The notes below the pieces were generated by a model. That model did no database searches. It saw nothing but the letters and a program-made list of their open reading frames with translations, and was not told where the DNA came from. The position numbers were made by a program, and so were the translations under genes. From assembly GCA_043381765.1 (NCBI GenBank), contig JBHJMP010000271.1, positions 1-33,640 on the forward strand: DNA of 33,640 nucleotides, given 5' to 3'. The first letter of the stretch is position 1. Every line of letters begins with the position of its first letter. The DNA comes from Collodictyon triciliatum (lineage: Eukaryota). This document shows positions 1 through 30,764 of this stretch, piece by piece.

Positions 1-66
<66 letters not shown>
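1..66. repeat. (TAT)n trinucleotide microsatellite, runs off the window start
   Basis: Perfect tat repeats from 1 to 66. Confidence 0.95.
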
Positions 67-634
67 CCCAATTTTTTTTAATCCATGCAAATATAGCGCG
101 CTAGATGATCGATCGGAAGCCGCGCTTCATGGTTATCCGAGGCAGTTTCGATACCCTTGGTAAGGAAAGGAAAAGAATACAGCGCGGTTTCCTTTCGCGA
201 TTCTTTCGCGTGGACAGGGCGAATAATCGGGTTGAGAATCGCTGCACTTTTGAATCAGCTTGTTTGATCCTTGGGTGTCCGAAAGGAGAATTCCACATCA
301 GATTCATTTACCGAATGTAAGGTATGGAGACTAAGCCACGAGGGTGCCTGGGTGCAAAAGAGCAGGCCACGAGGCCAAAATGTGTTGAAAGACAATCACA
401 AAACTTGATAACAGAATCTGCTTCTGAAAGAGCGATAAGATATGAGATCTCCAGATAATATTTAACAGAATCAGTACTTGGTGATACATCGATGGGTAAA
501 TACACGAAATTGAAATTATTTTTTATGATGCAGATGTCCAATCCAAACACGCTTGACAGGAAAGAGAAAATGAGGGAAGGGGTTCGCAATGGTAAAGGTG
601 CCTGTGAAAACACACTGTTTTGATATGAAGAAGA

Positions 635-2794: not shown

Positions 2795-2829
<35 letters not shown>

Positions 2830-2838
2830 AGAAAAAAA

Positions 2839-2872
<34 letters not shown>

Positions 2873-4815: not shown

Positions 4816-4897
4816 CGACACTGGCAGGATTTGAACCTGCGCGGGCGGAACCCAACAGATTTCGAGTCTGTCGCCTTAACCACTCGGCCACAGTGTC
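4816..4897 (-). tRNA. tRNA-Ser-CGA: tRNA-Ser (anticodon CGA), 82 nt, intronless
   Basis: Reverse complement GACACTG-TGGCCGAGTGGTTAAGGCG-ACAGA CT CGA AA TCTGT-long variable arm-GCAGGTTCAAATCCTGC-CAGTGTC-G. Acceptor stem pairs, A box and B box present, discriminator G, no encoded CCA, T-runs downstream. Confidence 0.97.
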
Positions 4898-5283: not shown

Positions 5284-8074
5284 TTAGGAAGACTTTTTTG
5301 GCAACGCTGGCTTTCGCTTCAGACGGAAGACTCGAATTTGGAGGATGGAGGTCATTCGGTCGACTACCGTCCACGAGGAGAGGAGGCAGACAAACAGGCC
5401 GAAAAACATTACCGAATGGATGATATACGCTGGATTCAGTGAGAAGGGCCTACATAAATTGGGGAGATTTTTACGGAGAAAGAAAAAAAAAAAAGAAGAA
5501 ATGGACCAAGTGCCCAAATGATATAATCTTATTTAGTTAATACAGAAAAAAAAAGTTCCCAATTAGACATAATAAGCTGACACATGATTGCTACAAAAGT
5601 TGGTATGTATAACAGGAAAAGGGCTATTTTGAATCGTGTCTTACGAAAAGAAGTTGAGAAGTGAAACAGTCAAAGCACACAAGACTGGGTGAACGACAGG
5701 ATACTTCTCGTGGCACAAATGCGATAGTATTAAGGAAGCCTGCAATAATAAAAATAAAAAATGGTGTAATTTATTGTCAAGAGGAAAATATGCTGACCGA
5801 AAGCGAATACATCTCGTAATTTCATGAACCAATTACAGATATAAATTATTTTTTTTAAGATGAATCATAACTCACAAGCATCTCCCAAAATGCAAATTCT
5901 ATAGCCCACATGACGACACGAGTGTCAGAGTAATTAAACTGATGGTGTTTTCAGAAAAAGGAGACTCCTTCAATAACAAATCATCTGGTCCTTCATCGTC
6001 AGTATGATTGACCAAAATGTTATATATTTTACTCACATATGGCGCACCAAGAATGACAGTAAGAAAAGACGCCACCGAAAATACCAAGAAAGTAGTAAGC
6101 GACAAAATAGGATGTGTCTTGCTTTCTTTTTCTTTAGAGCGGAGGTCATTGTAATGCTTCATGACAGACGATGTACTAATGTTTTATCGAATAGAGTAAA
6201 TATAATGCATCACATATTTTCAGGCAATATAGTAATCTAAACCACTAAGATTAAAAGAGCACATTAATTATCTTACTTGATTACAATTGTCACAAATGCC
6301 ATGACAAAACCAATAATCGGCATCATGTGTTTTAGGCGAATGTTGGCAAGAAATGGGGAAAGATTGCCTAGCTGCGATATGTGCATATTCCAAAACTGAT
6401 GTCCTAAGGTTTATTTTATGCGGTTGATTTTAGCTTTGATATTAGCTCTGATTTTAGTGGTTTTTTTGTCAGAGTTTTGTTATTCCTTTGTAAAGAAAGG
6501 TATTTGTAAGACAGTAATATAAGATAAACATAGAGAAAGAGGGGGGGAGAGAAAAGCGTATCCTAGAAAAATTATTATTGGGAGATTGCCTGCAAAAGCT
6601 GTTGTCAAGTGGATGGCGACGATGAGAAGAATTCCCTCACAAGGCCCATTAATTTGAGCTAGTATCATAGTTCCTGTGTGGTACCTGATGACATGAATTG
6701 ACAGGCTCATGGATTAATAATCACCGAATTTAGATTATTTATGAGATAGTATACATTTATAAGAGACGAAACGGAATGGACATACTCTTCCCATGTTGCA
6801 AAGAAGAATGGTAGGTAGCCACCAGCCCACAGAAGAAGGAATGACCAAAATCCAGCACCAAGTTGTAGAACAGACGCAGTGTTTAATCCTACGACCTGAA
6901 TAAATATTACAAACCAAAATTTGACGCCTTTATGTAAGTATGATTATTGCTTCATTTACATCAAATGCATGGAAATCAGTCAAGTTGGAACTTCAAACGC
7001 AGTGAATTAGGGTTTACAAAGAAATGGTAAACTCTTTGTGGATTATACGAATCGATAATACATACTGTAATGTTGAGACAATCACAGCCTTCATCGAGAT
7101 AATGAAATTTGAAAATGAAGAAATTAGGATGGTACATATTAAGAGAAACCACAAGAATTAACTATACAACCAAAGTCTAGGCATTTTTTTTTTTTTTTTT
7201 GCAAATAAAACATACAGTGGTCAAACATGTGTCCAAGTGGAGATGATGACCCTGTCTTTCGCGCTTGTCGCCCATCCAAGTTGTCAAATGTTTGGTAAAA
7301 GAAGACAGAAAATGCGCTGAACAAGATAATCCAGACAGGAAGATTTGAGTCCAGGTTCGGAGAGTACGACGCCACAATAAAATGCGAAGTAAGCAGCGGA
7401 ATCATTCCTATCACAGTGACCTATGCATCAATCCTCCTTAGAAAGAATCAAAAAAAAAAAACATGCGAATGTTAAATTGAATTACGATACTATGTGATGG
7501 TTTCATTTATCATTTTCCTTCATTCGATTCAAAATTAACAGTGCTATTTATGATTTTGGCGTGGACGTGATGATTGGTTTGATTGTTGGTTTCAATGTAG
7601 TACTTTGTACATAAAAAGGAAGCACAGAATGAAAGCTTACAAGATTTGGGCTGTATTTTTTTTTTTAAAAAAAAAAAAAGAAGCATAGGGCGTCCCAGCA
7701 GTTGGCAAACAATTATTTATATTTCAGTAAAAAAAAAAAAAAAGCATAGATATAGAATGCGTGATTATTTCGATTTAGTTATTGAATTGTTGTTATAAAT
7801 AGCTCGTATTGCTTTCAGGCCACCCACACTACTCTCCTTTATGATCTTTGTTTTGTTTTGGGCCATCAGCATAGCTATAAAATCAAATGTTGTCACAGAT
7901 TATATTGAAAAGGGACAAAAGAACATACGCCATCCACTCAGGCACAAAGCGCATGCACCAGTCCCAGTAGTGTCTGAGAAAGAGCCGATTGGAGATGGAG
8001 TTGTCCGTGCCACTGTACGCATAGTTCTTTAAAGCACTCGCGCGGGCTTTCCAGTCGTCGCTTGGGTCGATCAT
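5284..8074 (-). CDS. Choline/ethanolamine phosphotransferase (CEPT/EPT/AAPT family, CDP-alcohol phosphatidyltransferase), ~392 aa, 11 exons
   Basis: Exons 8074-7929, 7650-7641, 7420-7216, 7088-7066, 6895-6786, 6684-6590, 6403-6277, 6175-6037, 5938-5876, 5739-5645, 5449-5284 total 1179 nt in frame. Motifs [43 protein letters not shown] (CDP-alcohol motif), WEEYHTG..INGPCEG. An acceptor-like TTTCAG 3 nt before the ATG means an extra upstream exon is possible. Confidence 0.93.
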
Positions 8075-8109: not shown

Positions 8110-8405
8110 TCTTCTTTTTTATTTCTTTTTTATTTCTTTTTTATTCTTTTTATTTCTTTTTATTTCTTTTTATTCTTTTTATTTTTTTATTTCTTTTTTA
8201 TTTCTTTTTTATTTCTTTTTTATTTCTTTTTATTTCTTTTTTATTTCTTTTTTATTTCTTTTTTATTTCTTTTTTATTTCTTTTTTATTTCTTTTTTATT
8301 TTTTTTTTTTTTTTTTCTTTTTTATTTCTTTTTTATTTCTTTTTTATTTCTTTTTTATTTCTTTTTTATTTCTTTTTTATTTCTTTTTTATTTCTTTTTT
8401 ATTTT
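8110..8405. repeat. Degenerate 11-bp tandem repeat (TTTTTTATTTC)n
   Basis: About 300 bp of ttttttatttc units; source of the F/Y/L/I-rich spurious ORFs 8062-8466. Confidence 0.9.
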
Positions 8406-10221
8406 AGGTCCTAGTTTGCCCTGTAAAAAAAAACCCCAACCAAATAGATGCACAGAGGTTTTGTGATTCCCCTATTTTCATAGCTTTTTTTTTATTTTTT
8501 TATTTTTTTAGTTCTCGTGCATCAGGATCAACTCTTTGTTCATTTTTTCTATAAACAGCTGAAAGGCACAAGGAGACAGCCCAGCATCACTTGGTAGAAA
8601 ACATACTGCGGGTGGCAAAGTATGATTGTCTGAGCTGCGCAAAGCAATCTTTGTGTCGGCTCGTACTTCCAACCGGAGTGAAGGCTTGTCAGTTTGATGT
8701 TCCTCAGCGACAAAGAAGCAGGTAATATCATCATCTGATTTCGAGGGCGCAGGCTACGCGGCAAGATGGAGCTATCTGCGAGCTGTTTTTTTTCTTGACA
8801 TCCCAGCGAGGTACAAGGACTATACATCTTGGAGTGGAGATTGAGCGAGCGAGGGAGAATCTTGGTGATAACTTCGGTCGAATCTGACAGAGTTGATGAG
8901 TTTGCTTGGAAGGTCGTTGCGTGATGAGATTTGTTCTGTTTCAAACTAGATTGTGTGTGTGGATTCACATGATGTAGATTTATATCCTGCCGTGAAAAAA
9001 GTATGAAAAAAAAACTTCAGCAGAACACCCAAGAACAAAAAGAAAATAATTCAAAAGGCTCTAAACACAGCACTGGCGCGGATCAGGACCGAGCGAAAGT
9101 AGTACAGAAACAGCCCGCTGCTCGGCGGAACCTTCGGCACGTCCATGGAAGCAGCACAAAGCAAGAGCAGCCTCGAACATGCAAACGGTGTCTGAATCAA
9201 AGGATTAAATTTATATTCGCTATTCTGGAAATTACAATTTATGGTAGAATTATGATTACACATATGTCATGAACTTAATACCATTCAATTAAGAACACAT
9301 TATGTGTAAAATTATTGTAAGTGATAATCAATATCATCGATGCAACAGATTCTGCTTGTGTCTGCTTCACAACTACCCGAGAAGCTTCTAGATGTTGCCC
9401 AGCAAATAAGGAAATTTGTGGCCACATCTATGAAGTAATATGCATAATAATATTAGCACAATAATATATTTGCTGGAATTATTTGAACTCAAAATAACAT
9501 TTTTAAATTAATAATTATATTTTCCGTAATTAGATACCACCTGCCACCTCACCAGAGCACAACGCCACGCAACAACCTGTCACGCTGACACGCACAAGCG
9601 AACGCAACCAAAGCACAACCACCAAACACAAGAAGGATCACAACAAGGGCGAAGCAGGAGGCAAACCACACCGGAGGTCGAAAAGCAGTGCGAAGCCAAA
9701 AGCTGCTTCACTTTTGTTTGCTGGCTGGAAAGGATCAAACAATTTCCCACAGCCACAAACGAATCCACAGACACAAATGAATCCAGATCCAAAACATTAA
9801 TCAAGCCACAACTTCAACACAAGCGAGACTCGCGCCGAGCACAAGAAGGCCTCCCATATAGATGCCCTTGTGTACGGGTATATAGAAGCCCTTTGCCGCA
9901 TTTTCCTGAGGTTTTCCTCGGGTGGGTTGCACTCTCAATTGTCAAACATAAGCAGTTGGCTCCGTAATGCGCGAGGAGTTTGCAGGGGAAAGAAAACAAT
10001 CAAACATGCATCGTATTCACGCGAAACGACGTGATCGGCACGATCTGCCGAGGCCATTAGCATGAAGTATCTATATATACATAAGACAGAGTTTTAAACA
10101 AACAACCACAGGGATTTCCCAAGGCAACGCCACGAAGGAACATCTTCCTTTCAGCTCGCCTTAAGAAGACCGTCTCTTGCTTTCGTACCCAGTGCACCGC
10201 CTGCTGTGATCAGCCTGCGCC

Positions 10222-13200
10222 ATGAAGCGACGCAACTCTTCTGTAAGTGAAGAGCACATATGGATCACTTATTCAAGAGAAGCTGGACTTTCTTTTTCTC
10301 TGTAACGTGATTTTCTTGACTCAAAGAGCATTTACACTTTTTTTTAAATTGGCAACCTGTCCTTTTTAACCAAAAAGAAAAAAAAGTCTTCGATATTCCA
10401 AACAAACCCTTAACGCATGCATCTAAAGATGACCGAGCTGGATCAGCTCTTCCCACCCACCGCGCCAGTTGTGATCGATCAACTACCAAACTCTGAGGAG
10501 ATGAGTCCGTCCCAACTCATCAACTTTTCTGTCACCCTTGGAAACCGCCACCGCATCGATACAAAACCCGGTCGCCCACTTTTGCTCAAGCGACTCTTTG
10601 AGAATGCGACTATTCTTGAGCAAGCCTACAAAATGGTAGCTGACGCAGCACACGGCAATACTCGTTTGTCACACGCAGGTATCTGCCATAGAAAAGTTGT
10701 CTGTTGTATACATGTTTTTTTTTTTATCTTAAGCGTGCTATAGTATCCGCGAAAAACCATTTGGATACCTGATATAAAATTGCTTTAGAGGAATGGTTCA
10801 TCGACAATTTCTATCTCCTCTCCGAGAACATCAACAACGCCCGCAAGTTCTTTCCGCCTGGATATGACAAGAAAAGTGATCTTTTTTTTTTTTTAAATTT
10901 TAAGTGACTTACATCCAACCACAGTCTTCTGCTAAAGAGATAATTTATTTTTAACATTCATTTCTAAAACAAAAACAAAAACAAAAACAAAAAAACAGTG
11001 CCTCGCCTGCTCAATACCGACTCCAGCGGCCTTCCGCGCGTCTATGGCCTCGTCTTGGAACTGATTAGCTTGGTCAACTGCCATATTACTGAAAATAATG
11101 TAACCTATTTTGTCCAAGGTTACCAGTCCGTGTCTCCGTTGAAGATCGGTGAGCTGTGGGCTATCCCTATCATGCTTCGATTAGGGCTCCTCGAAAACAT
11201 TCGCTCTGTTGCCGACAAAATCATCAACATGAGAAAGGACCGAAACGTCGCAAACAGATGGGCTGACAAACTTCTCGAAGCGGCAGAGAAAAGTGGAAAA
11301 TCTGTGATTGAGGTTTTGTTTCAAATGTCCCAAAATCAGCTGAATATCAGCGATGCCTTCGTCATTCAAATCTCCCAACGCTTGCAAGGCTCTGACCCAC
11401 TCCTTTCCGTCATTACAACATGGCTGGAGCAACAACTCTCCACTCAAGGATTGGATATCGATGACGTCCATCGTTCTGAGCGCCATATGAACCAATTGCA
11501 CTTGGTTCGCCTTCGTAACTGCATCACTTCTCTTCGATTTGTGAATACGCACCAATGGGCAGATTTTGTAGAGACGCAGAGCTTAACCGAGTCTATCCTG
11601 CGCAAGGACCCAATGGGAATCTACACCCTGCAAGATTTCAGCACAAGAGATGCCTGCCGCCACGCAATCGAAGGCATTGCTGAGGATTCCAAAAAACCTG
11701 AGCAAGATATTGCCAACTTTGCTTTGGAACTGTCTACAAATGCCATCAAAGAATACCGAAAAATCATCAAGGAAATGAGCACAAAAGAGCCCTCTGCCAT
11801 GCTGCTTCATCGTAAGGGTTTTATTGGTTACTGGCTTATTGACCCAGAGGGCCAAATTGAATTGAGGCAAACTAAAAGCCTGAAAATACCTCTTGGTATT
11901 CAAATCACACGCCTTCTCAGTTCCGAAATTCGAATCGGCTTCTTTGTCTTATCTGTTGCGGTGATTTCCTTGCTTTTCACCGTCCTGGCACTCGGACTGA
12001 CTATGACGTCAGCTGGCGAGCAATTATCCTTTGGGCTTTTGTCCTCCCAGTTTGTTGGGAACGATTGGATTCCATTCCTCCTCTTTGTTCTGTGTCTTTT
12101 GGCTGTTGGAAGCCAGCTTGGCGTGGCACTTACAAATCTGTTTTGCGTTCGATGCGCTTCCCCGACTTTCATGCCCCGATTGGATTTCATCGAGACAGGA
12201 ATACCGGTTGAGCATCGCACGATTGTGGTTGTGCCTACGATGCTGACATCTACTGGGACTGGCAAAGAACTGGCTTCAGACCTACGAGCCCGCTTTCTGG
12301 TCAACAAAGACCCCAATATCTACTTCGCCTTGTTGACTGACTTCCCTGACGCAAAGACAGAGACATGCGCTACTGACGAGGCCATTCTTCAGGCGGCAGT
12401 CAAGGAAATCGACGAACTGAACCGTGTCTATCCAAATGATTCTGGTTCACCCTTTTTTATGCTCTTCCACCGACCAAGAAAGTATAACAGTGTTGACAAG
12501 GTCTGGATGGGCTATGAGCGAAAACGTGGAAAATTAAGCGACTTTAACCACTTGATGAGAGGCGGAGCCAAAGGTGCTTTCAGCAAAGTTATTGGCGATG
12601 TCCAGCTTCTCAAAACAATCCAATATGTTATCACTCTTGATACAGACACAATGTTGCCGTCTGACTCTGCAAAGAAGATGATTGGAACAGCTGCCCACAT
12701 ACTCAACCGACCTGTCTACGACCCTCGCATTCGCAAGGTGGCATGTGGTTACACCCTTTTGCAACCCCGCGTCTCATATGGTATCAGCAACATCTACAAA
12801 TCATACTACGGTTACTGGAACTCATTGGACAGCGGCGTTGACCCGTACACCAGGCAGGTTAGCGATGTCTATCAAGATGTGTTTGGAGAAGGGTCGTTCA
12901 TCGGTAAAGGAATCTACCACTTGGATGTCTTTGAAAGTGTTTTTGATGACCGATTCCCCGACAATCGAATCCTTTCTCACGACCTTATCGAGGGTTGCTA
13001 TTGCCGCTCAGGGTTCGCCTCCGACGTGGAGGTAATTGAAGAGTACCCTTCCAGTTACTTGACCGAAGTATCACGCCGCCATCGCTGGGTTCGTGGGGAC
13101 TGGCAAATTGCAGCATGGCTTCTTCCATTTGTTCCATCGCCTCATGGCTACACTCGCAATACATTGACCTACCTTTCCAGATGGAAGATTTTTGATAATC

Positions 13201-16200
13201 TTCGCCGGTCATTGGTGCCTAGTGGCATGCTTGGAATTCTCCTTTACAGTTGGTGCCATTCATCATTTTCTTCTGGGACTCCTCTGATTATGACTGTATT
13301 TTCTCTGTCATCGTACGTCATTCCTGGTGTGATAGAGATTCTTTTTGAGCTTACTCACAAGCAAGAGGATGTGGATATAGGATTGCACTTGAGCAACGTT
13401 TCATACTCTGTTTATCGTCGCTTATTACCTCTGGCGTTAGACATGATTTTCCTGCCCATCGACGCCTTCAATAACGTGGATGCTGCTGTTCGTTGCCTTA
13501 CACGCCTCTTCTTTACGCGCAAAAACCTTCTCGAATGGACAACCAGTACTGCTGCTGCCGCCTTGTTTACTGGAAACACTTTTCTTCGATTCTTACGCGT
13601 ACTCTGGTTTGGGCCGTTTGTTGCGGCGTTCACAGTTGCTATCCTGATGGGCCAATTGGTTATCCATGGAGTCAGCTTTAAATCTCTGATCGAAAATAGC
13701 GAATTTACCTTGGTGTCCATTAACTTCCTACAGGTTACATTGCTCCTTATCACCTGGGCTTCAAGTCCATTTATCGCTTGGTGGATTAGCAGCCCCATGG
13801 ACTCGCCCGAAAGTGGAATCTCTAAAGAAGACCGAGTCGAAAATCTGTCTGAAGAGCAAAAAGAATTCCTTCATGTGCTTGCTAGAAGAACTTGGCGTTT
13901 CTTTGAAGCTTTTGTTACTGAAGAGGATAACTGGCTTCCCATCGACAACTACCAAGAATTTCCCAAACCCATGTTTGCTCGTAGAACTAGCCCTACAAAC
14001 ATAGGCCTGGCCCTAATGGCAAACATTGGCGCCTGGGACTTTGGCTATGTCACCATGAAAACAGTCATAGAACGAACAGAACTTACCCTTAAGTCAATGT
14101 CCCAGCTGGAAAGGTTCAAAGGCCACTTTTATAACTGGTATGATACAAGCAACATGAAGCCTCTCCCACCAAAATATGTATCTGCAGTCGATTCAGGAAA
14201 CCTCTTTTTCACTTTGGTTATCCTGTCCACTTTTATCAAGGAAATGTCATCGGCCCGCCTAATACCTGGGCAGTTTGGAAAGGGATTATTGAATGGTAAT
14301 TTCCTTCTTTTGGACTACATCAATCGTCAGCTCCAAAAGAAACAAAAAAAGAACACAACCACCGAAGTTCATGACGATGCACATCCCGAAGAAAATGTTT
14401 CTCAGTTGCCACGCGAGTTAGATACACAGGCAGTGACCCCCATTCTTACGACCATTAAGTCGACCATCGAGAAGTTCCAGGTGCAGAATGCTTTGGACGT
14501 ATTTTTGGGCATTGAGTCACTATCTGAACCATGCAAACAACTCCTGCAAATATTGGAGCAGTTCAACGAGATTCAACGAGCAAAGGCTGAGAAACAAAAA
14601 GAGGAAATCATCTCGTCCGATGGAATTGTTGTTGTCCAACAAAGTACGGAAACGAAGGAGGGAGAAATGCTCTACTATATTCGAGCTCTTACCACCCAAT
14701 TGGAGGATACTAAGCAAGAAATAACCACCTACATGCCTTGGATACCCGTCCTGGCCACCATCAAGAGCGAGGGTAAGCAGAGCCCTGTGCCAGAGTCAAT
14801 TTTGAAGAAACTGTCCGACCCGAACTTGACAATCACATCTGTTTCGAGCCTGTGCGATGAAGTTATTGCTACATACGACAAAGAGTCTGGGACTGAGGGC
14901 GAAGATGAAAAAGAGCCTTCTAGCTTCTTATCTGCCATTCGCGAGGCAAAAGAAAATGCAAAGAAGAGACAATCTCAAATTCAGGAGCTTAGCGAGCTTT
15001 TGAATATCTTTATGGAGCAGGACTATACCTTTTTGTATAACAACTCCCGCAATCTCCTTTCTATAGGGTTCAATGTCGACCACAACCGAATGGACAATTC
15101 ATTTTACGATATGTTTTGTTCCGAAGCCCGCCTGTGTTCTTATGTGTGCGTGGCTAGGGGATTGTTGCCTGTGAAGCATTGGTTCTCCATGGGACGCCTT
15201 TTGACTGGAACAAAGACAAAGTCTGCTTTGCTTTCCTGGTCAGGCTCCATGTTTGAGTATCTGATGCCTCTTTTATTCATCCCCAGCATTCATGGAACTC
15301 TGCTGGACCAAACTTACAAATCTGTGGTTCGCCGCCAAATTGAATATGGACAGCAGAAGAAGGTCCCGTGGGGCGTTTCAGAGTCTGCGTATAACATGAT
15401 GGATGCTGGACTTGTCTACCAGTATGGACCATTTGGTGTGCCTGGACTTGGTCTCAAACGCGGTCTATCCAATGAACTTGTTATTGCCCCATATGCATCT
15501 TGTCTTGCGACTATGGTTGCCCCGGTGGAGGCTTGCAAAAATCTAATGCGCTTAACAAACATTGGAATGCAAGGAGCTTACGGCATGTATGAGAGTATTG
15601 ACTTTACTCAAAAGCGCCTGCGCGGTGCAATTACTGCACAACCTATCCAAAGCTTTTTCGTGCATCACGAAGGAATGTCTTTTTTGGCCCTGCTGTACAC
15701 TTTGCTCGACAAGCCGATGCATCGCCTCTTCTACAATACACCAGAGTTTGCTGCAAACGACCTGCTTCTGCAAGAAAAGATTCCAAAGATTCCTTACATC
15801 ATCAACCCCAACCAAAAAGAGCTCACCAGATGGAAAAACCCAGAAGGAAACGCTCCTTCGTGCAACAGAAAGTATCAAGGCCTGCAGGTTTCCATTGCAC
15901 CAGAAATTCACATGTTGTCCAATGGTAAATTCCATGTCATGATTACCGTGCACGGTTCCGGATATACAAACTACAAGGATTTGATGGTTTCTCGCTGGAG
16001 AGAAGACATCACAATGGACTGCTATGGTACCTACTTGTACGTGCGTGACCTCGACAACAAACGCTTCTGGACAGCAACATCTACGCCTGTTCTTGCGCCA
16101 CACAATTCAAACTACTCTGTCTTGTTCAGCCAAGGCAAAGCAGAATTCACGAGGGTTGAAGATGACATTGAGACCAAGACAACTGTGGTTGTTTCCCTGT

Positions 16201-19200
16201 ATGATTCTCTTGAAGTTCGGCGAGTTGAACTGAAGAATAACTCTAGCAAAGCCCGAACTATTGATTTGACAAGTTACAGTGAAATCATTTTGGGCAGTGC
16301 CCGCTCAGACGCCAGCCATCGTGCCTTTGCTAATCTTTTCATTCAGACCGAGGTGTTGACTGAACAAGACGCAATCCTTGCATATCGCAAGCCGCGCACA
16401 CACAAAGAAAAAACCATATATGCCTTCCACACTTGTTTTGTTCACCAAAAGAAGAAAACTTCTCAAGAGCCTCCGTCATTTGAGACGGACCGCAACATGT
16501 TTATTGGTCGCGGGTACTCTACACAATCGCCTCGCTCGATGTGTGAGGACGTGACGACGCTGAGCAATCCATCTGATGTTCATTACCCATTAGACCCTGT
16601 TTTTGCGGTCCGCCAGAAAGTCACCATCCCCGGCAACTCTTCTGTCTGTATTGACTTTATAACTGGTGTTGGGGAATCCAAAGAAGAAACACTCAAGCTG
16701 CTCCAAAAATCACGCCGAAAGAATTACACTTCGAGTGTTATCGAGTATTCGTGGATAAATAGTCAAAAACTCAACTTCAAGCTCGGCATATCTGAAATCG
16801 AAGCACAACTCTTCTGTCAACTTGGTGGCTGTATTTTATACTCTAATTCGAGATATCGTGCTTCTCCTCGTTTGATTGCAAAGAACCGCTCGAATCAAAG
16901 CGGTCTGTGGAGACTCGGCATATCTGGAGACCTTTGCATCATTTTGGTTCGCATAGGCGACGTCGCAAACATGGATTTAATTATCCAATGCCTGCAAGCC
17001 CATGCATACCTGCGAGCCAATGGCATCATTTGCGATGTTGTCATATGGAACGACGAGACAAGTTCATATCGCGATGAGCTCCATACATCGCTTTTATCAC
17101 TGATTGCAAACATGGGTGAAACATCCCAGCTCCTGCAGAAACCAGGCGGTGTTTTCCCGGTGAGAGGAGAGAGTATTTCCGAGCACGAAGGTATTCTTCT
17201 CTACAGCACTGCACGAATCGTCATATCAGACTATGGAGGTCGTTTAGTCGACCAGATTCACCGCGAGCCCAGAAAGGACAGAGAGTTGCCACCTCTTCTA
17301 AAAGTTGCCAACTTGCTCACCGAATCGAAGCCAACCACATTACCTCTGCCAAAGGTCCCTGTCGACCTTGAAAAGGAAAAGAAAGGTAGTGACATTATCG
17401 GCGGACTGGCGCCACTCGAGCAGAGAGACCTTGTTGAGGTGAACGAGTTTGGTGGATTTGACCAACGTCGAAAGGAATTTGTCATGATGCTGGAGGAAGG
17501 AAAATCCACACCGATGCCGTGGGCAAATGTATTGGCCAACGAGAGCTTTGGTTCTGTGGTCTCTGAGCGTGGCTCGGGTTACACTTGGTTTGAGAATGCA
17601 CACGAGTTCCGTTTGACTCCTTGGTCAAACGATGCGGTCACTGATGTCAGTGGAGAAGCCTTCTACATCCGTGATGAACAAACAGGCCAATACTGGTCTC
17701 CGCAACTGCAGCCCACGGTCGGAAAAACACCGTACGCAGTTCGTCATGGCTACGGTTATTCCGTCTGGGAGCATTCTGAGAACGGCATTCGCAGCGATAT
17801 GGTTGCTTTTGTCCCACCAAATGAATCTGTCAAGATTTTCCTTGTGCAACTCAAAAACCACAGCGGTCGGCCTCGCAAACTCACCGTGACTGGGTTTGTG
17901 GAATGGGCACTCGGAGAGATTCGAGACCGGACTAATTCTCACATAGTGACTGATGCTGAGTATGGCACATACATGAAGTCAATCATGGCTCGCAACCCAT
18001 ATCACCTCGACTTTGGCCTGCATGTGTGTTTCTTTGGTGTCATCGGCCACGACTGCACTATGACGGCCGATCGCTCTGAATTCATCGGATACAATCGTTC
18101 GCATGCATCTCCGGCCGGAATGGAGCGCACTCGGCTCTCAGGCACAGTCGGCAGTGCCTTGGACCCATGCGCTGCTATTATGGTGCCGGTGGAGCTTAAA
18201 GCCGAGTCTTCGATGGAGGTTGCGTTTATCCTGGGAGCATCGCATTCATCAAACAGTGCAAAAGACCTTGGCGAGCGCATTCGCAGCAACCTTATCGTGC
18301 ATCAGCTGCTAAAGAACACCAAGGCTTTCTGGCTGGACATTCTGCAATCCGTAACGATTGAGACGCCAGACAACTCGGTCAACCTTCTTGCAAATGGCTG
18401 GCTCCTGTACCAAGTCCTCAGCTCTCGCATCTTTGGCCGTTCAGGATTTTATCAATCATCGGGCGCCTTTGGATTCCGTGACCAGCTGCAAGACGCCATG
18501 TCTCTTGCTCACGCAGCCCCGCATCTGTTGCGTCGCCAAATCATGAGCTGCTGTGAACATCAGTTTGAAAAGGGTGATGTCCTCCACTGGTGGCATCAGC
18601 AAGGAAACCGCGGAACTCGCACTCGGATATCGGACGATTATCTTTTCTTGCCCCTGGCTGTCTACACCTATCTCGAAAACACAAACGATGTCCAGTTGCT
18701 GGATGCGATGTCGACGTATTGTACAGGGGTTGACGAGCCTGCTGAAGGTCAAGAGAGCGTCTTCAACCAGGCCCGAGGCTCGGAAGTGAGCGCAAGTGTG
18801 TACGACCACTGCAAGGCCGCCATCCGATACGGACTCAAGTATGGCCCTCACGGCCTTCCGCTGATGGGCTGTGGCGACTGGAATGATGGTATGAACGAAG
18901 TTGGGATTGAAGGCAAAGGCGAGTCTGTGTGGCTCGGCTTCTTCCTCTACTACGTCCTGGAGAAGTTTGCGTATGTGGCCCGCAAGTTCAAAGGAGACAC
19001 GGAGTTTGCCGAGTTGTGTGAGGAGCACATGGAGAAGGTTAAGGAGAGTCTGCACCAGCACTCCTGGGACGGCGAATGGTTCCTGCGCGCATTCTTTGAC
19101 AACGGCGAGCCACTCGGAAGCCACAAGAACGATGAGTGCCAGATTGACTGCCTGTCGCAATCGTGGGCCGTAATCAGCGGTGCCGTGGACAAGGAGCGAG

Positions 19201-19907
19201 CGCGGCAGGCGCTGTCGAGCGCAAACAGCCGCCTTGTGCGACGAGACCACAAGCTCATCCAGCTGTTTGACCCGCCATTTGAAAAGACAAAGATGGAGCC
19301 CGGCTACATCAAAGGGTACGCAAAGGGCGTCCGCGAGAACGGCGGGCAATACACACACGCGGCCGTGTGGCTGATCTGGGCGTATGCGGAGCAGCGCGAT
19401 GCACGGAGCGCTTGGGAGTTGCTGGACCTCATCAATCCAATCCATCACACGCGCACGGTGGACGAGCTGCAGCGCTACAAAGGAGAGCCCTATGCGATGG
19501 CGGCCGATGTCTACATGCTGCCCGGACACGAAGGCCGCGCGGGTTGGACGCTTTACACGGGCTCTGCTGGGTGGATGTATCGCTGCATCGTGCAGCGGCT
19601 CATCGGGCTTGAGCGGCAAGGAAACTGTCTTGTCTTGACGCCGCTTCCTCGGCCGGAGTGGAACGAGTTCAAGGTCCACTATCGCCACAAGCGCACGATG
19701 TATCACCTCCAGTTTCTGCGTCGGAAGGTCGGCAGCTTCAGCGGGTACAACATGAAGGAGATTGAGCGGACACTTGCGCAGCAGCAGCAGCAGCCCATGG
19801 AGAGGAAGATGACGATTGTGATTGATGATTTAGAGACCGTGGACGACAATCGCTTTGAGCTTGTCGATGATGGTCGCGACCACAATGTCAAGGTCCTCTT
19901 CTCGTAG
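10222..19907 (+). CDS. cgs: Cyclic beta-1,2-glucan synthase (Cgs/ChvB/NdvB type; GT84 + glucoamylase-like cyclisation domain + GH94 phosphorylase), ~3,080-3,090 aa, spliced
   Basis: Exons: putative 10222-10242 (MKRRNSS|GTAAGT), 10429-10678, 10789-10875, 10999-19907; total 9267 nt in frame. Splicing restores the conserved N-terminus SHAEEWFIDNFYLL..GYDKKMPRL..GLPRVY..GELWAIPIMLRL. GT84 motifs WMGYERKRGKL, VITLDTDT, YQDVFGEGSFIGKGIY, SHDLIEG, RRHRWVRGDWQ; about six TM segments; middle domain RTSPTNIGL, SEARL, SWSGSMFEYLMP, PWGVSESAY; GH94 YQSSGAFGFRDQLQD, GDWNDGMN, RENGGQYTHAA, YTGSAGW. The first 21-nt exon is less certain (alternative starts 10417/10429). Confidence 0.95.
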
Positions 19908-20677
19908 GATGGCGTCGGCTGTTAGTCTGTGTGTGGGCTCGACTTCAAAGAAGAAAAAAACGGAAAGAAAAAAAAAGTGTTTGATGTGTTCATGGGAATC
20001 ACCAATCGTTTTTTCCTTCTCTTTCACTTTCCGTCTCTCTCGTTTTCTTTCTCTTTCTCCTTCTTCCCAGGGTTCGAAAGCAGTGGAGCCAAGCAAACTC
20101 TCTCCCTTTCCCCTCTCACTATCGAAGGAATTAAACAAATAATAATAATAATAATAAAAAATAAAAATAAAAATAATGAATTCAGAGAAGCCAAGCCAGT
20201 CAGAAAAACACGTTCATTTCATATTAGGCAATTTAAGTTGCTTGCGTTACAGTTATTTATCTATTTAATACAACTACAATTATTCTAATTGTATTAATTT
20301 ATTTATTTATTTTTGGCTTTAGTTCAGCAGTTTATTGAGAGAAAACAGAACCAAGGAAACTGCCTTCGCCTTTAGGACAAAAATGAGCTGTGGACGAGAC
20401 AGTGGAAAACCTCGGATTGTGTGGCTGGAGTTTTTATGTTTTGGAAGGAAGGAAATGAAAAAGAAAAAGAAAATAGAAAGGAGAGAAGTGTTCTCACACA
20501 CAAACTATTCTACCCGAAGCGAATCAGCTCCAACGCGGTTTCTGGTTGTATTCGAGACTGACAGAAGAGCGGATAAAGTTGTCGGGTCGATTAAAGTACG
20601 CACATGGCAGTTACTTCTCAAATCGATTCCGACGAGTCCTTTCAACAATCCATCTCAGACAAGATTTACATCCTATT

Positions 20678-22017
20678 TCATTTCACAGGATGAGTCTTTT
20701 GAGGAGACAACGGGTCACTTTCCTTGCGTTTCTTGCTGGGCGACTCAAACAAAAAGCGATACATCGTTGTTTTCATGATATCAACGGAAGTGGCGCTTGA
20801 CCGTCCCCTGGTTTCGGAACCATGCGTAGCCGGCAGTGGACTTTGCTTAACCGGAGTATGGATACGCGTTTGTGGTTTTAGAAACATACGCTCTTGCTTG
20901 CTCGGGTTGCCTTTGGTGTGTGAAGTTCCAAGCTTGGATTCGACTTGTGCTGTTTGCCCTTGCTCCTTGGTTCTCGGTGCGATGGGCTGGGGCATGGATA
21001 AACGGACTATCTTTGGTGGGCGCTGGTTCTTGTGTTGCCTTCGCTTTGGAGTATCCTTTCGGATAAGCAACGAAGACTGCCTTGAGGCCTCCTATGTTAA
21101 CCATATTCACGTCAGTCTGAATGGGTAGTTTAAGGGGTATTTCTTTCGGGGTTTGGAGATGCGCTGCTCTTGGGTCTTGCGATGTGCAGGCTTGTCCGGC
21201 GTTGGCGGTGGATGGCTCGAGTGCGAGGATTCTGAAGAGGAACCGAGATTTCCTTCCATGTCATCGTCGCTGTCGCTGTATGCGCGTATCTGCTGTGAGC
21301 CTTGCAGACTCTGTTGTTGCCTGGCCTTGGCTTCCTTGACCCCGTTGCTGCTTGTCTACTTGGCGGGTGTATTCTTTTGTGGGGCTTTTGCTTTTCGTTC
21401 GTTGTTCGCAGCTGGCGGACGCTCTTTGAGGATGCGCTTTGGATACTTTTTTCCCATGACCGTAAACTTTGCAGGGAGCTTGTTCTTGTGACAAAGAAGC
21501 CTCACCACGGCCGTGTCTGTGAAGAAGCCTTTGTCCTCTTTGATCTCCACGTGGGTCGGTCTGAACGGCTTAACTCCTCACGAAGGAGTTGTGGCCACAC
21601 GTCCAGCGGTAGTTGACAGAGCATCACCGAGGTATCTGTTGGTCTACTTCTAGCGAAGCTGATCGTAATATCGATCAAACTTACCTGTTTCAGCTCCAGA
21701 AGCTTTCGGGCGTTTTCTGCAGTGCGGAAGGCAGTCATGCAAAGGCCTTCGCTGTCCGGTAAGCGCAATTGGATGGACTCTTCCTAAAGTTTGTTCGCTT
21801 TCAAGAAGGAGGCGAGCGCAACTGTAAGCCTGCGGGCCTTGTTCTTGTTTTAAACGACTTGCTCGACACCATGCAAAAATACTGTCCGCCCAGACAGACT
21901 TGCAGGCGGCTTCCTTGCACCAGTTTTCCTGGACTTACGTTCAACTCGGGGGTTTTCTGCACTAGTGTTTTGACCAAGCAACCCTACTTATATCTCATAT
22001 TCTGTTATGGTTGCCAT
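20678..22017 (-). mobile_element. Decayed ORF resembling the RRM-containing ORF1 (gag-like) of a non-LTR retrotransposon (L1/Tx1-like); no ORF2 seen
   Basis: Intronless, relatively GC-rich island. One frame 22017 to ~21555 broken by TAA 21990, TAA 21852, TAG 21786; one frameshift; second frame to 20678 broken by TAG 21358, TGA 21109, TAG 21094. Joined peptide AFRTAENARKLLELKQVSLIDITISF..TSVMLCQLPLDVWPQLLREELS../VEIKEDKGFFTDTAVVRL..KLPAKFTVMGK resembles the ORF1 RRM pattern by eye, followed by a K/S/P-rich tail. Confidence 0.5.
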
Positions 22018-22279
22018 AGGAAATGAATACATCGGTTCTATGTCACAACTTATTGATTCTACACCAGCTATTGACACACTGCGTAATTTAATCGTGATGA
22101 TTTGTCCATGTGGGGTCGCCCTCCCCAAAGGCATTGTAGACAGAAAGTAAAAGGAGATGGGGTAGAAATCAAAGATGCAAATATGTAATATCATAGTTCT
22201 TTGATACGGTTAAGATTTGAGTTACACGGCGGTAGTACGAAGGATATATAAGTATGCAGGTAGAGTCCAGAACTTCATC

Positions 22280-25200
22280 TTAAAAGGGGAGAGGTTGTGA
22301 CTCCAAGAAATGTCTTAATAGGCACAACTCCTCTGTCACAAAAAAGTCTGAGTCTGCTATGACGTCCCTAAAGAAAGACAGAAAGACAGAAAGACAGAAA
22401 GACAGAAAGACAGAAAGACAGAAAGACAGAAAGACAGAAAGACAGAAAGACAGAAAGACAGAAAGACAGAAAGACNNNNNNNNNNNNNNNNNNNNNNNNN
22501 NNNNNNNNNNNNNNNNNNNNNNNNNNNNNNNNNNNNNNNNNNNNNNNNNNNNNNNNNNNNNNNNNNNNNNNNNNNAAACAAGACAAAAAACAAGACAAAA
22601 AACAAGACAAAAAACAAGACAAAAAACAAGACAAAAAACAAGACAAAAAACAAGACAAAAAACAAGACAAAAAACAAGACAAAACAAGACAAAACAAGAC
22701 AAAACAAGACAAGACAAAACAAGACAAGACAAGACAAAACAAAACAAGACAAGACAAAACAAAACAAAACAAAACAAAACAAAACAAAACAAAACAAAAC
22801 AAAACAAAACAAAAAGGCGGGAAAACGGAGGAAATACTTTCCAGATTCTTCTATTTGCATCAAAATAGCTGAGACGCGATCTCTATGAATTCTACGAACC
22901 AGAATTATGGAAATATTAGAACTTAGAATCAGATTTCAAGTATGTTATGTACATACGGCTGATTTCATTACTTTTTTTTTTCACATAGCTAACATTAAAA
23001 AAAAAAAAATCAACATCTTACGATGATATCTTTTCATTTTGAAATGTAGAGTGGATTAACGCGAGCAAGGCAGAGAGCCTGGCCACAGTGCCCAAAAGCT
23101 TCAATTCCTCACATAGCTCCATTCCAGAATATGCACAAACCAGTGCATCTTTTATTCTCAACTGACGAAAGAATATATCAGCAAGAGATTCGTATGAGCG
23201 AGCACAAATTAATTTTCTCATTTCGCTTGATTCATCATCCTCCAGGTGAACAAGGTTGCGATGAATAAAGGCTGATTCAGACTTTTGACTGCTCGGTGGG
23301 AGTAATGCACATCGTGAAGTTACACGGCCAACCACGACCATTTCATTAACTTGTGTTTGCCTCACTATTTGTTCCGGATGCACTTGATTTGTGGGCAGAG
23401 CTGCAGAACACATGGCTTTCTTAATCCCAAGCCATAAGTCACGTCTAAGAGCAGTAAATACGAAAAAAAATGAAGATAGTCTAAAAGTCGATGCTCTGGC
23501 ATTGGATATCTCCAAACATTCACCAAGATACCTAGCAATAATAAAATAGCATGGTTAATCCTCTGAGAATGCAAATTAATTCATTTTAAATGTGCCAACA
23601 TCTTCACCATCCTGTACAAAATTGTAAGGAAGAATAAAAAAAATATTCATTTTAGATATATTTTGATGAAGTTGTTTGAATTCACCTTGATGATAAGATA
23701 AAGTCTCCTCGAATTTTGTAGCATTCGCCGATGTTAAATCTACATATCACACTTAAAATTGTATCTTGAGGGGAGCTCTCTTGATTCAACAAACACTCTG
23801 CCTGCAGAAAACACTATAGTTTTCTCCGGTTAATATAATCGACTGATTTATTTATTTTAGAGATGTAATTTTGAGAAGATTTTGCTTTCAAAGTAAAGAA
23901 ATGTGAAAGACAATTTTTTATAATGTATTTTTTAAAATGAATTACTCTGATTGCTTCATCCAAATTATGTAAATTAAGAGCATCCTCCCCAGAAAGCATG
24001 TAGTATTCTATTTCATTATATTTTACAGAATGAATAAAGTTGTCATTCTTTCTTTTGGATGATATTGATTCAAAATATCATAATGGCCTAAATATGACTT
24101 CTTACTTATCGCCTTCTTCGTTTCTTTGCTGTTGAGAAAGTGGAAGGCAATCTCGTAGTATGGAAGCTTCTTTCCCTTACCCATCTTCTGTTCGAAATAT
24201 TCCCCGATTATTTTGTGCAATCTTTCCCTTTTCTGAGATAGTATTGTATTATCTATTTCGAATGGAATTTTTATCGTGATTTAGGCTCTTTCTATTCATC
24301 ATTCAACAACATCACCGTGATTTATATTCATTTTTAATAAACTGTAAACTTACACACAATATTCTTTACCACATTACTCGAAAATGCATATGTGTCTTTT
24401 GCTTGAGGGATAGGAACAATAAAGCTGGACGCTATCGCAGCATGAAAACACTCATCCACATCAATGCTACCAAGAACTAAATTATGCAGCACAGCTTCAA
24501 TGCATTCTTTATGAAATGTTGAGCCTGCCACGCTAGGTTATCCAATAAAAATTTTCAGTAATATGCCAAATGGCGGTTGGTATCCAGAGGTAGATTTCAC
24601 ACAATAGGATAGTCTTGTATAAACAATTGCCCACCTGCAAATACGTAAGATATGACTCTGGTCAAGAGACAGGTTATCTACTTTCTGACATACCTATATG
24701 CACAGACATTCAACTAGTGGATAGATAGAACCAAGCAATATTTTCATAATATTCATGATTGCTTCAAATGTATTTTTTCTTTTACTTTTATGTTAAAAAA
24801 AAGAGGGAAAGGGAAACCATACAAGTCCTTCTAAACTTCCAGGTAGCTGAAAATTAGAATCCGATAGGTTTTTGATGCTAACTTGTTTTTCATGGATAAC
24901 AACAATATTCGCATCAACAAGTGCGCGGCATAGTTCTGTTGTTAAGAAGCATATATATATATATAGACTAATTGAGACTTCCATTATAAACTAAAAAAAT
25001 AGGATAAAAACAGAATCCTTACAGTATCTAGGCAAAATTTGTCAAAATGATCTCATCAAGTAGACATAAGCTTTTTTTTTTCACACTATTATGATGCAAA
25101 TAAAATTACCGCGAATCATGTACGCATTCCCGCTTGTTTTTGAGTGAATCATACGAACGAGTTCCTCAGGTATTGAAATGCAGCCCAGCAGTCTCGTAAT

Positions 25201-29790: not shown

Positions 29791-29848
29791 CTAGGTCACC
29801 GCATTTCCATATTCACATATTTAAGTACATACATAGCGGCCTCACAGG

Positions 29849-30008
<160 letters not shown>

Positions 30009-30764
30009 GAATGCATGAATATATAAATATACATATTCGAGGTCTAAAAATGATACAGAGGGCAGAAATGCTTAGGAAACCTGTCAAACTTTTCGTTGGC
30101 TGCCATACTTTCTTCGGTGACCCCACAGGAAATAGAATGGAATCAAACTCTTTTTTCCACACAAGTTCAAAGGTGTTTGCTCTGTCCATGCAAAGTAAAT
30201 GGTTTATTAGCCACTATTAATCACATAAAGAGAAATAAGTCAAGGCTTTTGTACAACCTATCTCTTTTATGAAGGAATACCATCCCACATTAGCCGATAT
30301 AGGGATCAAGATAAATAAATAACGCAGTATGTGAAAGGTTATTGTTGAAAAAAGATAAATAGAAGAAGAAAAAAAGAAAATGCGAACGAGCCATGAGTCA
30401 GTATCTGATTAGTAAAAAGTGGTCGAACTAAGAAGGTAAGGATAGGAGATGACAGGTTGCCCAAGCAAACTGTATGTTAGAATGTGCATACAAATTTAGT
30501 CAAACAATCGAGTTGTAAGTATCCCGTGTAAAACTTGCTTTGATCAAAGCTTCGATGCTCTTGATTGAGGAACAAGAAAAAGGAAAGGAAAGATAAAAAA
30601 AAAAGAATAGGAAAAAGAATAGGAAAAAACAGCGTCCCTTGTATTTCGAAAAAAAAAATTAACGAAGAGCACATTCCAGCAAGAAAAATCTTTTCTTGTC
30701 TTAAGCCACCAACTTTTTTTAACTTGCATTCCTTTCTTAATTCTGTTTTGTTTTATGTTTATTA

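Follow-up and report, generated by a model that had tools for sequence, protein, structure and literature searches.

[quoted passage not shown] The gene is most probably a nuclear gene of a collodictyonid (CRuMs), near that of Diphylleia rotans, which descends from one old bacterium-to-eukaryote transfer, belongs to the same lineage as genes of heteroloboseans, and would act by a Cgs-like mechanism. The gene is real, and its protein, a newly recognised member of this known enzyme family, is probably functional.

The boundaries of the original prediction, which had described a protein of about 3,080 aa, coincide exactly with the start ATG and the end of the stop codon. The spliced model gives a coding sequence of 9,267 nt and a protein of 3,088 aa, with three GT..AG introns within the first 780 bases. 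The gene and its parts are as follows.

10222-19907, forward strand: cgs-like gene, ATG at 10222, stop ending at 19907, four exons
10222..10242, forward strand: exon 1, with the ATG and MKRRNSS; spliced translation equal to the first 7 residues of the D. rotans ORF P0002
10243..10428, forward strand: intron 1, 186 nt, GTAAGT..AG, GC 0.34
10429..10678, forward strand: exon 2, N-terminal domain, colinear with D. rotans P0002
10679..10788, forward strand: intron 2, 110 nt, GTATCT..AG, GC 0.32, phase 1
10789..10875, forward strand: exon 3, with the motif EEWFIDNFYLL, which is kept in the N-terminal domain of bacterial Cgs
10876..10998, forward strand: intron 3, 123 nt, GTGATC..AG, GC 0.23, phase 1
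10999..19907, forward strand: exon 4, 8,909 nt with the stop, 96% of the protein, with a full-length match to 8rf0_A/8rf9_A

The open frame at 10968-19907 comprises 2,979 codons; among the window's 8 ORFs that reach 150 aa or more, the runner-up has 416 aa. With about 3 stops per 64 codons, an open frame of 2,979 codons is beyond chance. The introns, with GC of 0.23-0.34, split sequence that is homologous to the N-terminal domain of bacterial Cgs. At the EEWFIDNFYLL place of exon 3, the consensus of an alignment of 18 sequences (alignment A1; 9 eukaryote-type and 9 bacterial full-length proteins, mean column identity 52%) is EWLLDNFYLIEEQI. A complete Trinity transcript ORF of D. rotans (EukProt EP00002) is 81.7% identical to the spliced protein (1-3088 against 1-3092, 8 gaps) and is colinear with it across all three splice junctions.

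GT84, cyclisation and GH94 parts had been proposed for this protein, and their presence is confirmed by Pfam together with alignments to Agrobacterium Cgs chains. Pfam matches comprise the GH94 supersandwich (PF06165, E 8e-153, two stretches, best 2172-2413 on P0001), the GH94 catalytic domain (PF17167, E 3e-106, 2444-2870 on P0001) and Glycoamylase (PF10091, E 5e-9). Neither a Pfam match for GT84 nor any NCBIfam family (0 matched) was found for the protein, and the GT84 region is seen in the match to the Agrobacterium Cgs chain (query 459-926, E 5e-95). The Agrobacterium chains 8rf9_A and 8rf0_A match with E 0 and 1657.7 bits in two stretches, the best at query 1324-2894. Chains of GH94 disaccharide phosphorylases (chitobiose, cellobiose) match at E 1e-64 to 1e-79. 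The architecture of Cgs proteins, which have about 2,800-3,100 aa, is present in full and colinear: an N-terminal domain comes first, then GT84 with its membrane helices, the cyclisation domain and finally the GH94 region.

11943..12131, forward strand: two hydrophobic helices before the GT domain, residues 435-497 (Kyte-Doolittle window 19, peaks 2.66, 2.05 and 2.41)
12192..13109, forward strand: GT84-type glycosyltransferase domain, by residue-by-residue alignment to 8rf0_A
13284..13760, forward strand: membrane segment after the GT domain, residues 882-1040, three hydropathy peaks of at least 1.6
13827..15800, forward strand: cyclisation (GH189-type) domain, with a variable insert between two conserved blocks, by alignments to 8wy1_A and 8rf0_A and by PF10091
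15885..19679, forward strand: GH94 phosphorylase region, two supersandwich stretches and the catalytic domain, by PF06165, PF17167 and the 8rf0_A alignment

Six transmembrane helices flank the GT domain of Cgs; a simple hydropathy scan at a threshold of 1.6 gives five peaks here, 2 before the GT domain and 3 after it.

All functional residues that were checked are kept (15/15), and all 15 are invariant columns across the 18 sequences of A1. Residue numbers are those of the full-length protein, and 8rf0_A indices equal the numbering of PMC10901819. In the GT84 site, D567, D667-x-D669, D781 and R815-W816 correspond to D527, D624/D626, D739 and R773-W774 of Agrobacterium, to which the available part of PMC10901819 assigns the roles of UDP-coordinating aspartate, DxD, catalytic base and RW motif. 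The primer tyrosine is likewise kept, Y736 in GVDPY aligning with GIDPY of 8rf0_A (the autoglucosylated Y694 of Agrobacterium). The cyclisation site retains D1184, E1495, E1539, E1581 and H1675-H1676. The acid/base E1356, E1400, the nucleophile E1442 and H1536-H1537 of the Thermoanaerobacter italicus enzyme (TiCGS) all align to identical residues, with a chain offset of 1003 for 8wy1_A that is consistent over all five TiCGS residues; the roles are those given in the accessible portions of PMC10834661 and PMC10901819. Equivalents of Agrobacterium D1104 and E1300 are also kept. In the GH94 site, D2614 in GFRDQLQD and D2749 in GDWNDG correspond to Agrobacterium D2393 and D2528.

Full-length homologues are present in D. 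rotans (EP00002_P003193), Naegleria fowleri (XP_044563458), N. lovaniensis (XP_044554021) and Willaertia magna (KAL9648816), and Acrasis kona has two partial entries (KAL0483061, KAL0487169). Their names are automatic: 'hypothetical protein', 'N,N'-diacetylchitobiose phosphorylase' and '6 TM domain-containing transmembrane protein'. These homologues share with the window protein a length class of 3,092-3,161 aa and a clade; full-length identity to it is 81.7% for D. rotans and 50-58% for the others, and in the GT region (search query residues 380-900) 83% and 54-61%. The Naegleria and Willaertia copies sit on contigs of 505-784 kb. An acquisition private to one protist, as first envisaged, is not borne out, the homologues of Naegleria, Willaertia, Acrasis and D. 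rotans falling in one clade. Since the window gene and its eukaryotic homologues are one clade, the transfer is old and shared.

Relatives in bacteria are far more numerous. In a representative library drawn from some 15 billion proteins, 9,181 representatives match at E<=0.001; the eukaryote type amounts to two representatives at 50% identity, with 838 and 817 bits, the next match having 659 bits. Bacterial relatives account for at least 598 genome stretches, out of 600 examined, and a search of the ESM Atlas returned bacterial clusters only. Full-length identity to the nearest bacterial proteins is 42-44%, and for 80 loci the best segment has 33-46%.

In every tree the eukaryote-type sequences fall into a single clade: 11 of 179 rows in FastTree (SH-like support 1.0), 9 of 48 and 10 of 49 rows in IQ-TREE under LG+G4 (SH-aLRT 100), and 9 of 33 rows under LG+C20 PMSF (SH-aLRT 100), the last on an alignment reduced to 33 rows and 801 columns by taking one gap-free column in three. 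All supports are SH-like or SH-aLRT values from quick searches, and the trees are unrooted. The clade also includes four further sequences, P0003, P0004, P0006 and P0008. Its named heteroloboseans form a group of their own (SH-aLRT 90-93), and so do the two collodictyonids (100). A branch with SH-aLRT 100 and a length of 0.26 (LG+G4) or 0.45 (LG+C20 PMSF) divides the set made up of the eukaryote clade and some of the bacteria from the remaining bacterial groups. The bacterial origin that had been proposed is upheld by the FastTree and IQ-TREE trees, which place the eukaryote clade inside the diversity of bacterial Cgs; this nesting coincides with a eukaryotic gene feature, the introns. The maximum-likelihood phylogeny suggested as a way to the donor clade thus gave bacterial nesting and a single eukaryote clade, but no nameable donor. 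Naming of a donor phylum was attempted and abandoned: the sister group shifts by tree, being a Tepidisphaerales MAG at 0.38 in FastTree and part of open polytomies under LG+G4 and LG+C20 PMSF. Bacterial phyla are intermixed throughout the trees.

Conservation of all the catalytic residues checked makes a beta-1,2-glucan pathway of the cell's own plausible, in line with what had been predicted. The activity, product, topology and physiological role outlined here are predicted ones. By homology with Agrobacterium Cgs, the protein would be seated in a membrane with its catalytic domains facing the cytosol. There the GT84 domain would use UDP-glucose for self-glucosylation of Y736 and then extend a beta-1,2 chain, the GH94 domain would trim chain length by phosphorolysis, and the GH189-type domain (nucleophile E1581, acid/base E1495) would, by transglycosylation, set the chain free as a ring some 20 glucoses in size, each step again by homology. 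No ABC exporter of the ChvA/NdvA/Cgt type was recognised among the ORF pieces scanned in the 33.6-kb window. The enzyme would most likely serve the osmotic adaptation of freshwater and soil cells, or else contribute to the cyst or the cell surface.

It is rather unlikely that the enzyme has instead drifted to making a linear, protein-attached or wall-attached glucan, or to a mainly degradative role on the glucans of ingested bacteria. Such a change would be consistent with the long stem of the eukaryote clade (0.55-0.59 changes per column), with an apparently longer insert in the cyclisation domain (about 224-238 query residues against about 125 in Agrobacterium), and with organisms that eat bacteria and, as eukaryotes, have no periplasm to fill. 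Domains can also differ in weight, as loss of the GH94 catalytic acid in Agrobacterium has a minor effect according to the available text of PMC10901819. Against drift, the GT84, tyrosine-primer, cyclisation and GH94 residues are all kept, and the whole architecture persists across collodictyonids and heteroloboseans at 50-58% identity, which points to selection acting on the entire synthase cycle. Moreover, the isolated TiCGS cyclisation domain makes rings if the chains are long enough, as reported in the accessible part of PMC10834661.

A synthase of bacterial origin is also the preferred reading over vertical descent from a very early eukaryote with loss almost everywhere, which is very unlikely. 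One clade does join the distant supergroups CRuMs and Discoba, with heteroloboseans and collodictyonids each grouping as such within it. Yet only two eukaryote-type representatives at 50% identity stand against thousands of bacterial ones, the clade lies inside bacterial diversity under any root placed among bacteria, and loss would be required in nearly all eukaryote lineages. As the trees are unrooted, this case rests on parsimony.

The surroundings of the gene are recognisably eukaryotic on the upstream side.

638-931, reverse strand: RING exon, from a Pfam scan of ORF pieces
4816-4897, reverse strand: tRNA-Ser(cga), upstream of the cgs-like gene
7142-7420, reverse strand: CDP-alcohol phosphotransferase exon, the upstream neighbour, from a Pfam scan

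D. rotans P013336 shares 84% identity with the CDP-alcohol phosphotransferase exon (best of 4 matches, 96 candidates), and the collodictyonid link is to the upstream side only. Of the eukaryotic flanks described earlier, the CDP-alcohol phosphotransferase (CEPT), RING, tRNA-Ser and microsatellites (14 TRF rows in the window) stand, but the sAC-like downstream gene was not confirmed, Pfam finding no cyclase family in the 6 downstream ORF pieces. These pieces gave a sub-threshold KAP P-loop match. For the downstream neighbour there were 0 homologues among 457 candidates of 250-2000 aa and no PDB match, and no Pfam family exceeded the cut-off in 8 ORF pieces, taken from upstream positions 9530-9964 and from the interval that separates the stop codon from the first N gap. 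The cgs-like stop is followed by an N gap at a distance of 2.6 kb. GC per kb is 0.45-0.57 in the gene against 0.28-0.42 in its surroundings; the gene as a whole has GC 0.487 and GC3 0.54, against GC3 of 0.32-0.49 in neighbouring ORF pieces that include intron ends. The higher GC of the gene could reflect foreign origin or a join, and GC content was dropped as a test of foreign origin since the ORF pieces used for comparison contain intron ends. Among 21 sequencing runs, the highest word shares come from two small 2025 runs of uncertain type (0.41 and 0.33), followed by a freshwater metatranscriptome (0.31); nothing is drawn from them on expression, habitat or coverage.

Bacterial contamination or an assembly chimera, in which a bacterial cgs was wrongly joined to protist DNA, would fit the GC contrast, the N gaps, the downstream side with no recognised eukaryotic gene, and the existence of amplified single-cell collodictyonid assemblies, a method that yields many chimeric reads according to the available text of 10.64898/2026.06.11.730069, but it is already contradicted by the three introns inside the coding sequence and is highly improbable given also bacterial proteins no nearer than 42-44% identity, a D. 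rotans ORF that is colinear over the junctions, an upstream neighbour whose D. rotans orthologue has a similar identity, and Naegleria and Willaertia copies on long contigs. The gene is therefore eukaryotic, as originally proposed: introns cut conserved N-terminal coding sequence, the D. rotans ORF spans the junctions, and the neighbour is D. rotans-like.

No published eukaryotic Cgs was found in the literature, nor any description in print of the eukaryotic homologues. The novelty expected of a eukaryotic Cgs holds to that extent, and is lessened by homologues already present in public databases. In the portions available, PMC10901819, PMC10834661 and PMC11842490 (2024-2025) name no eukaryotic synthase; for a eukaryote they mention just one occurrence, that of the glucan in Chlorella pyrenoidosa (Suarez 2008, by way of PMC11842490). 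Current reviews treat cyclic beta-1,2-glucans as bacterial molecules. The main text of the Acrasis kona genome paper (PMC11589745) contains no mention of glucan, GH94, phosphorylase or CAZy, and its supplementary HGT tables may list the gene.

An intact, intron-bearing synthase in collodictyonids and heteroloboseans would supply a eukaryotic producer of such glucans and would open glucan physiology in wall-less freshwater and soil cells. A wider proposal, for which the sequences leave the chances about even, is that phagotrophs of two distant supergroups, the collodictyonids in CRuMs and heteroloboseans including Naegleria in Discoba, would themselves synthesise cyclic beta-1,2-glucans, using an enzyme that was acquired from bacteria a single time and then passed from eukaryote to eukaryote or retained from a very early ancestor. 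If so, cyclic beta-1,2-glucan would be a eukaryotic metabolite with a function of its own, for example in hypo-osmotic protection, as cyst or surface material, or in phagosome handling, and its biology would reach beyond bacterial host interaction. The gene would also neatly illustrate how a bacterial gene of 9 kb and several domains can be kept whole after transfer to a eukaryote. The Naegleria fowleri homologue is worth describing for the biology of that species, and misleading automatic names in Naegleria, Willaertia and Acrasis records would be corrected.

Among known systems, the Cgs/ChvB of Agrobacterium tumefaciens (8RF0, 8RF9; PMC10901819) is built of the same parts, arranged in the same order from end to end. 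The window protein differs from it in being encoded by a nuclear gene with three introns, in being about 260-290 residues longer than the Agrobacterium chains (2,799 and 2,818 aa), in the gap between its cyclisation blocks (about 224-238 residues against about 125), and in a host that lacks a periplasm for the product and a known exporter partner. The cyclisation domain of T. italicus CGS (GH189; 8WY1; PMC10834661) matches over both conserved blocks at E 4e-114; in that system the middle domain alone was solved and assayed, whereas the window protein is known from sequence. GH94 phosphorylases (1V7V chitobiose, cellobiose and 1,2-beta-oligoglucan) match the C-terminal 750 residues at E 1e-64 to 3e-79; they are free-standing soluble enzymes about 800 aa long, unlike the window protein with its 3,000 aa, of which the names 'cellobiose phosphorylase' and 'chitobiose phosphorylase' cover just the last quarter.

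Eight ORFs of at least 150 aa occur in the window, the longest comprising 2,969 codons (10998-19907, + strand, within a stop-to-stop open frame of 2,979 codons at 10968-19907) and the second 416. The N-terminal continuation of the protein was found in three short frames 5' of the long ORF. Reading of the DNA and scripted splicing gave the gene model below, listed with two further exons of the window.

Exons in the window
10222-10242, + strand, cgs-like exon 1 (spliced model)
10429-10678, + strand, cgs-like exon 2 (spliced model)
10789-10875, + strand, cgs-like exon 3 (spliced model), carrying EEWFIDNFYLL
10999-19907, + strand, cgs-like exon 4 (spliced model)
7142-7420, - strand, CDP-OH_P_transf exon of the upstream neighbour (Pfam match)
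638-931, - strand, RING exon

The three cgs-like introns (186, 110 and 123 nt; GC 0.34, 0.32 and 0.23, respectively) are all GT..AG, and the CDS of 9,267 nt encodes 3,088 aa. Since the spliced model runs from 10222 to 19907, the original prediction of that span and of a protein of ~3,080 aa was correct. GC per kb climbs along the long exon (11001-19904), from ~0.45-0.47 over its 5' half to 0.54-0.57 towards its 3' end; its overall GC3, 0.54, exceeds that of adjoining ORF pieces.

Pfam models matched in the protein are the GH94 supersandwich, in two stretches (E 8e-153), the GH94 catalytic domain (E 3e-106) and PF10091 Glycoamylase (E 5e-9); the glycosyltransferase part matched no Pfam model, and a search of NCBIfam matched no family. 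In PDB, Agrobacterium tumefaciens Cgs is followed by the isolated cyclisation domain of Thermoanaerobacter italicus CGS (TiCGS; 8wy1_A, E 1e-111) and then by stand-alone GH94 phosphorylases. The three parts of the protein were aligned residue by residue with reference chains, using the numbering and roles given for Agrobacterium Cgs in the available text of PMC10901819 and the roles given for TiCGS in that of PMC10834661. Indices of the Agrobacterium chain 8rf0_A equal the published numbering, as checked by D624-A-D626 within LDADT; with a chain-to-paper offset of 1003 for 8wy1_A, all five TiCGS residues align with identical letters in the window protein.

Residues of Agrobacterium Cgs (At) and TiCGS (Ti) and their aligned counterparts in the window protein
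GT84, UDP-binding: At D527, window D567
GT84, DxD: At D624/D626, window D667/D669
Primer tyrosine: At Y694, window Y736
GT84, catalytic base: At D739, window D781
GT84, RW motif: At R773-W774, window R815-W816
Cyclisation: At D1104, window D1184
Cyclisation acid/base: At E1300, Ti E1356, window E1495
Cyclisation helper: Ti E1400, window E1539
Cyclisation nucleophile: Ti E1442, window E1581
Cyclisation helpers: Ti H1536/H1537, window H1675/H1676
GH94: At D2393, window D2614
GH94 catalytic acid: At D2528, window D2749

All 15 residues checked are invariant in an 18-sequence alignment of nine eukaryote-type and nine bacterial proteins. Hydropathy scanning places two hydrophobic peaks ahead of the GT domain and three behind it; the N-terminus (MKRRNSSMTELDQ...) carries no hydrophobic leader. 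Every sequence criterion tested assigns the window protein to the Cgs family.

The architecture and residues of the protein are demonstrated by these comparisons; its activity, product, topology and location we infer. By homology with Agrobacterium Cgs and the TiCGS domain, as described in the available text of PMC10901819 and PMC10834661, it would be a membrane enzyme whose catalytic domains face the cytosol. It would prime itself on Y736, elongate a beta-1,2 chain from UDP-glucose, shorten that chain phosphorolytically in the GH94 domain and close it by transglycosylation through E1581 and E1495. A putative role in hypo-osmotic adaptation would fit cells living in freshwater and soil. The main live alternative is that the enzyme makes or handles another form of beta-1,2-glucan.

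The introns split sequence that is conserved in the N-terminal domain of bacterial Cgs; EEWFIDNFYLL, in exon 3, corresponds to EWLLDNFYLIEEQI in the alignment consensus. The closest database relative, the complete ORF of a Diphylleia rotans Trinity transcript (EukProt EP00002_P003193), aligns with residues 1-3088 at 81.7% identity with 8 gaps, continuously over all three exon junctions. A full-length Cgs in a eukaryotic locus, as originally predicted, is confirmed, and on sequence grounds the gene is real, intact, intron-bearing and eukaryotic, its function being predicted. Upstream, the CDP-OH_P_transf exon is 84% identical to D. rotans P013336 (best of 4 matches among 96 candidates); the RING exon, a tRNA-Ser(cga) and many microsatellites complete the eukaryotic picture. 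The window accordingly derives from a collodictyonid near to, yet distinct from, the EukProt D. rotans. The predicted eukaryotic flanks were recovered in these exons, the tRNA and the microsatellites; for the 'sAC-like' gene claimed downstream, neither Pfam nor homologue searching nor PDB gave any support. Contamination is much less likely than another glucan product. For some collodictyonid assemblies the DNA was amplified from single cells, which yields many chimeric reads (available text of 10.64898/2026.06.11.730069); this caveat and those on the downstream side bear on linkage to neighbours, not on the eukaryotic nature of the gene.

Nothing recognisable lies in the 2.6 kb from the cgs stop codon to an N gap at 22476. 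The first ~2.5 kb (19908-22400) has comparatively high GC (0.41-0.51), and both of its strands carry overlapping ORFs (90-150 aa) without family match; this interval may represent a gene not yet recognised or an extended 3' UTR. What seems to be a long multi-exon gene occupies 23000-33400 (- strand), its ORF pieces (70-178 aa) alternating with AT-rich gaps; one piece (25894-26118) gives a sub-threshold KAP P-loop match. Long T-rich, A-rich and AAACA-type microsatellite arrays lie at 8112-8405, 22372-22814 (interrupted by a 100-N gap, the extent being as assembled only), 29849-30005 and 33480-33640.

With residues 380-900 as query, each of the 8,000 candidates scored cleared the E 0.001 threshold. 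Seven relatives, at 83-54% identity, stand out above all others: the D. rotans transcript, four sequences on contigs scarcely exceeding the gene, a cluster with two partial Acrasis kona proteins, and a cluster that includes proteins of Naegleria fowleri and N. lovaniensis encoded on 778-784 kb contigs. Bacterial proteins come next, at 51% identity or less. An exhaustive search of representatives gave 9,181 matches at E<=0.001; the representative of the Acrasis cluster (838 bits) and a Willaertia magna protein (817 bits) are set apart by a gap from the next score, 659 bits. Scanning one genome per prokaryote species found relatives in at least 598 of the 600 stretches listed; the best 80 of these loci, from many phyla, show 33-46% identity.

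The Acrasis proteins (KAL0483061 and KAL0487169; 1,688 and 1,482 aa), one annotated '6 TM domain-containing transmembrane protein', lie on different contigs and are probably a single gene broken by assembly or annotation. The Willaertia proteins KAL9648817 (1,521 aa) and KAL9648816 (3,130 aa) carry the same locus tag and therefore look like alternative models of one gene. One full-length prokaryote locus (L034), in a MAG labelled Methanothrix (archaeon), is placed with Elusimicrobiota and Spirochaetota sequences in trees; either an archaeon acquired the gene by transfer or the contig was misbinned.

Trees (alignment rows x columns; all unrooted, with SH-type supports obtained in short searches)
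FastTree LG+gamma: 179 x 2842; 11 eukaryote-type rows; one clade, 1.0 (SH-like); stem 0.58
IQ-TREE quick LG+G4: 48 x 2748; 9 eukaryote-type rows; one clade, SH-aLRT 100; stem 0.56
IQ-TREE quick LG+G4: 49 x 2755; 10 eukaryote-type rows; one clade, SH-aLRT 100; stem 0.55
IQ-TREE quick LG+C20+F+G4 (PMSF): 33 x 801; 9 eukaryote-type rows; one clade, SH-aLRT 100; stem 0.59

The FastTree set omits 14 of the 113 proteins P0009-P0121 (<2,800 aa) and 11 of the 80 loci (outside 2,800-3,200 aa). In IQ-TREE the eukaryote clade falls together with bacteria in one set, nested inside it, and this set is divided from other bacteria (Chloroflexota, Acidobacteriota, an alphaproteobacterium and others) by a branch with SH-aLRT 100 and length 0.26 (48 x 2748) or 0.45 (33 x 801). 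Within the clade (49 x 2755 and 33 x 801 trees), the window protein pairs with D. rotans (100) and this pair joins two further sequences (93-99); Willaertia pairs with Naegleria (100) and these join Acrasis with one further sequence (90-93); one further sequence is basal. The nesting and very uneven distribution argue that the gene is of bacterial ancestry, the trees being unrooted; ancient vertical descent is much less likely. No donor could be named in the IQ-TREE runs because the clade's immediate neighbours form a polytomy. The original prediction is thus partly supported: a eukaryotic gene of bacterial ancestry stands, a nameable donor does not, and uniqueness to this genome is ruled out by the homologues in the collodictyonid D. 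rotans and in heteroloboseans.

The gene belongs to a small, unreported clade common to collodictyonids and heteroloboseans. No description of a eukaryotic Cgs was found in the literature, that on Naegleria included; the available portions of PMC11842490 and PMC10901819 do not mention one from eukaryotes, the sole eukaryote mention in those of PMC10834661 concerns fungal glucanases, and the main text of the Acrasis genome paper does not contain 'glucan'. In the available portions of these reviews the only eukaryotic link is Chlorella pyrenoidosa, from which cyclic beta-1,2-glucans have been reported (cited in PMC11842490). The window protein differs from known Cgs in host, introns and extra length, and the stretch separating its two conserved cyclisation blocks is apparently longer. 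A known enzyme family gains a member, of predicted function, in an unexpected domain of life.
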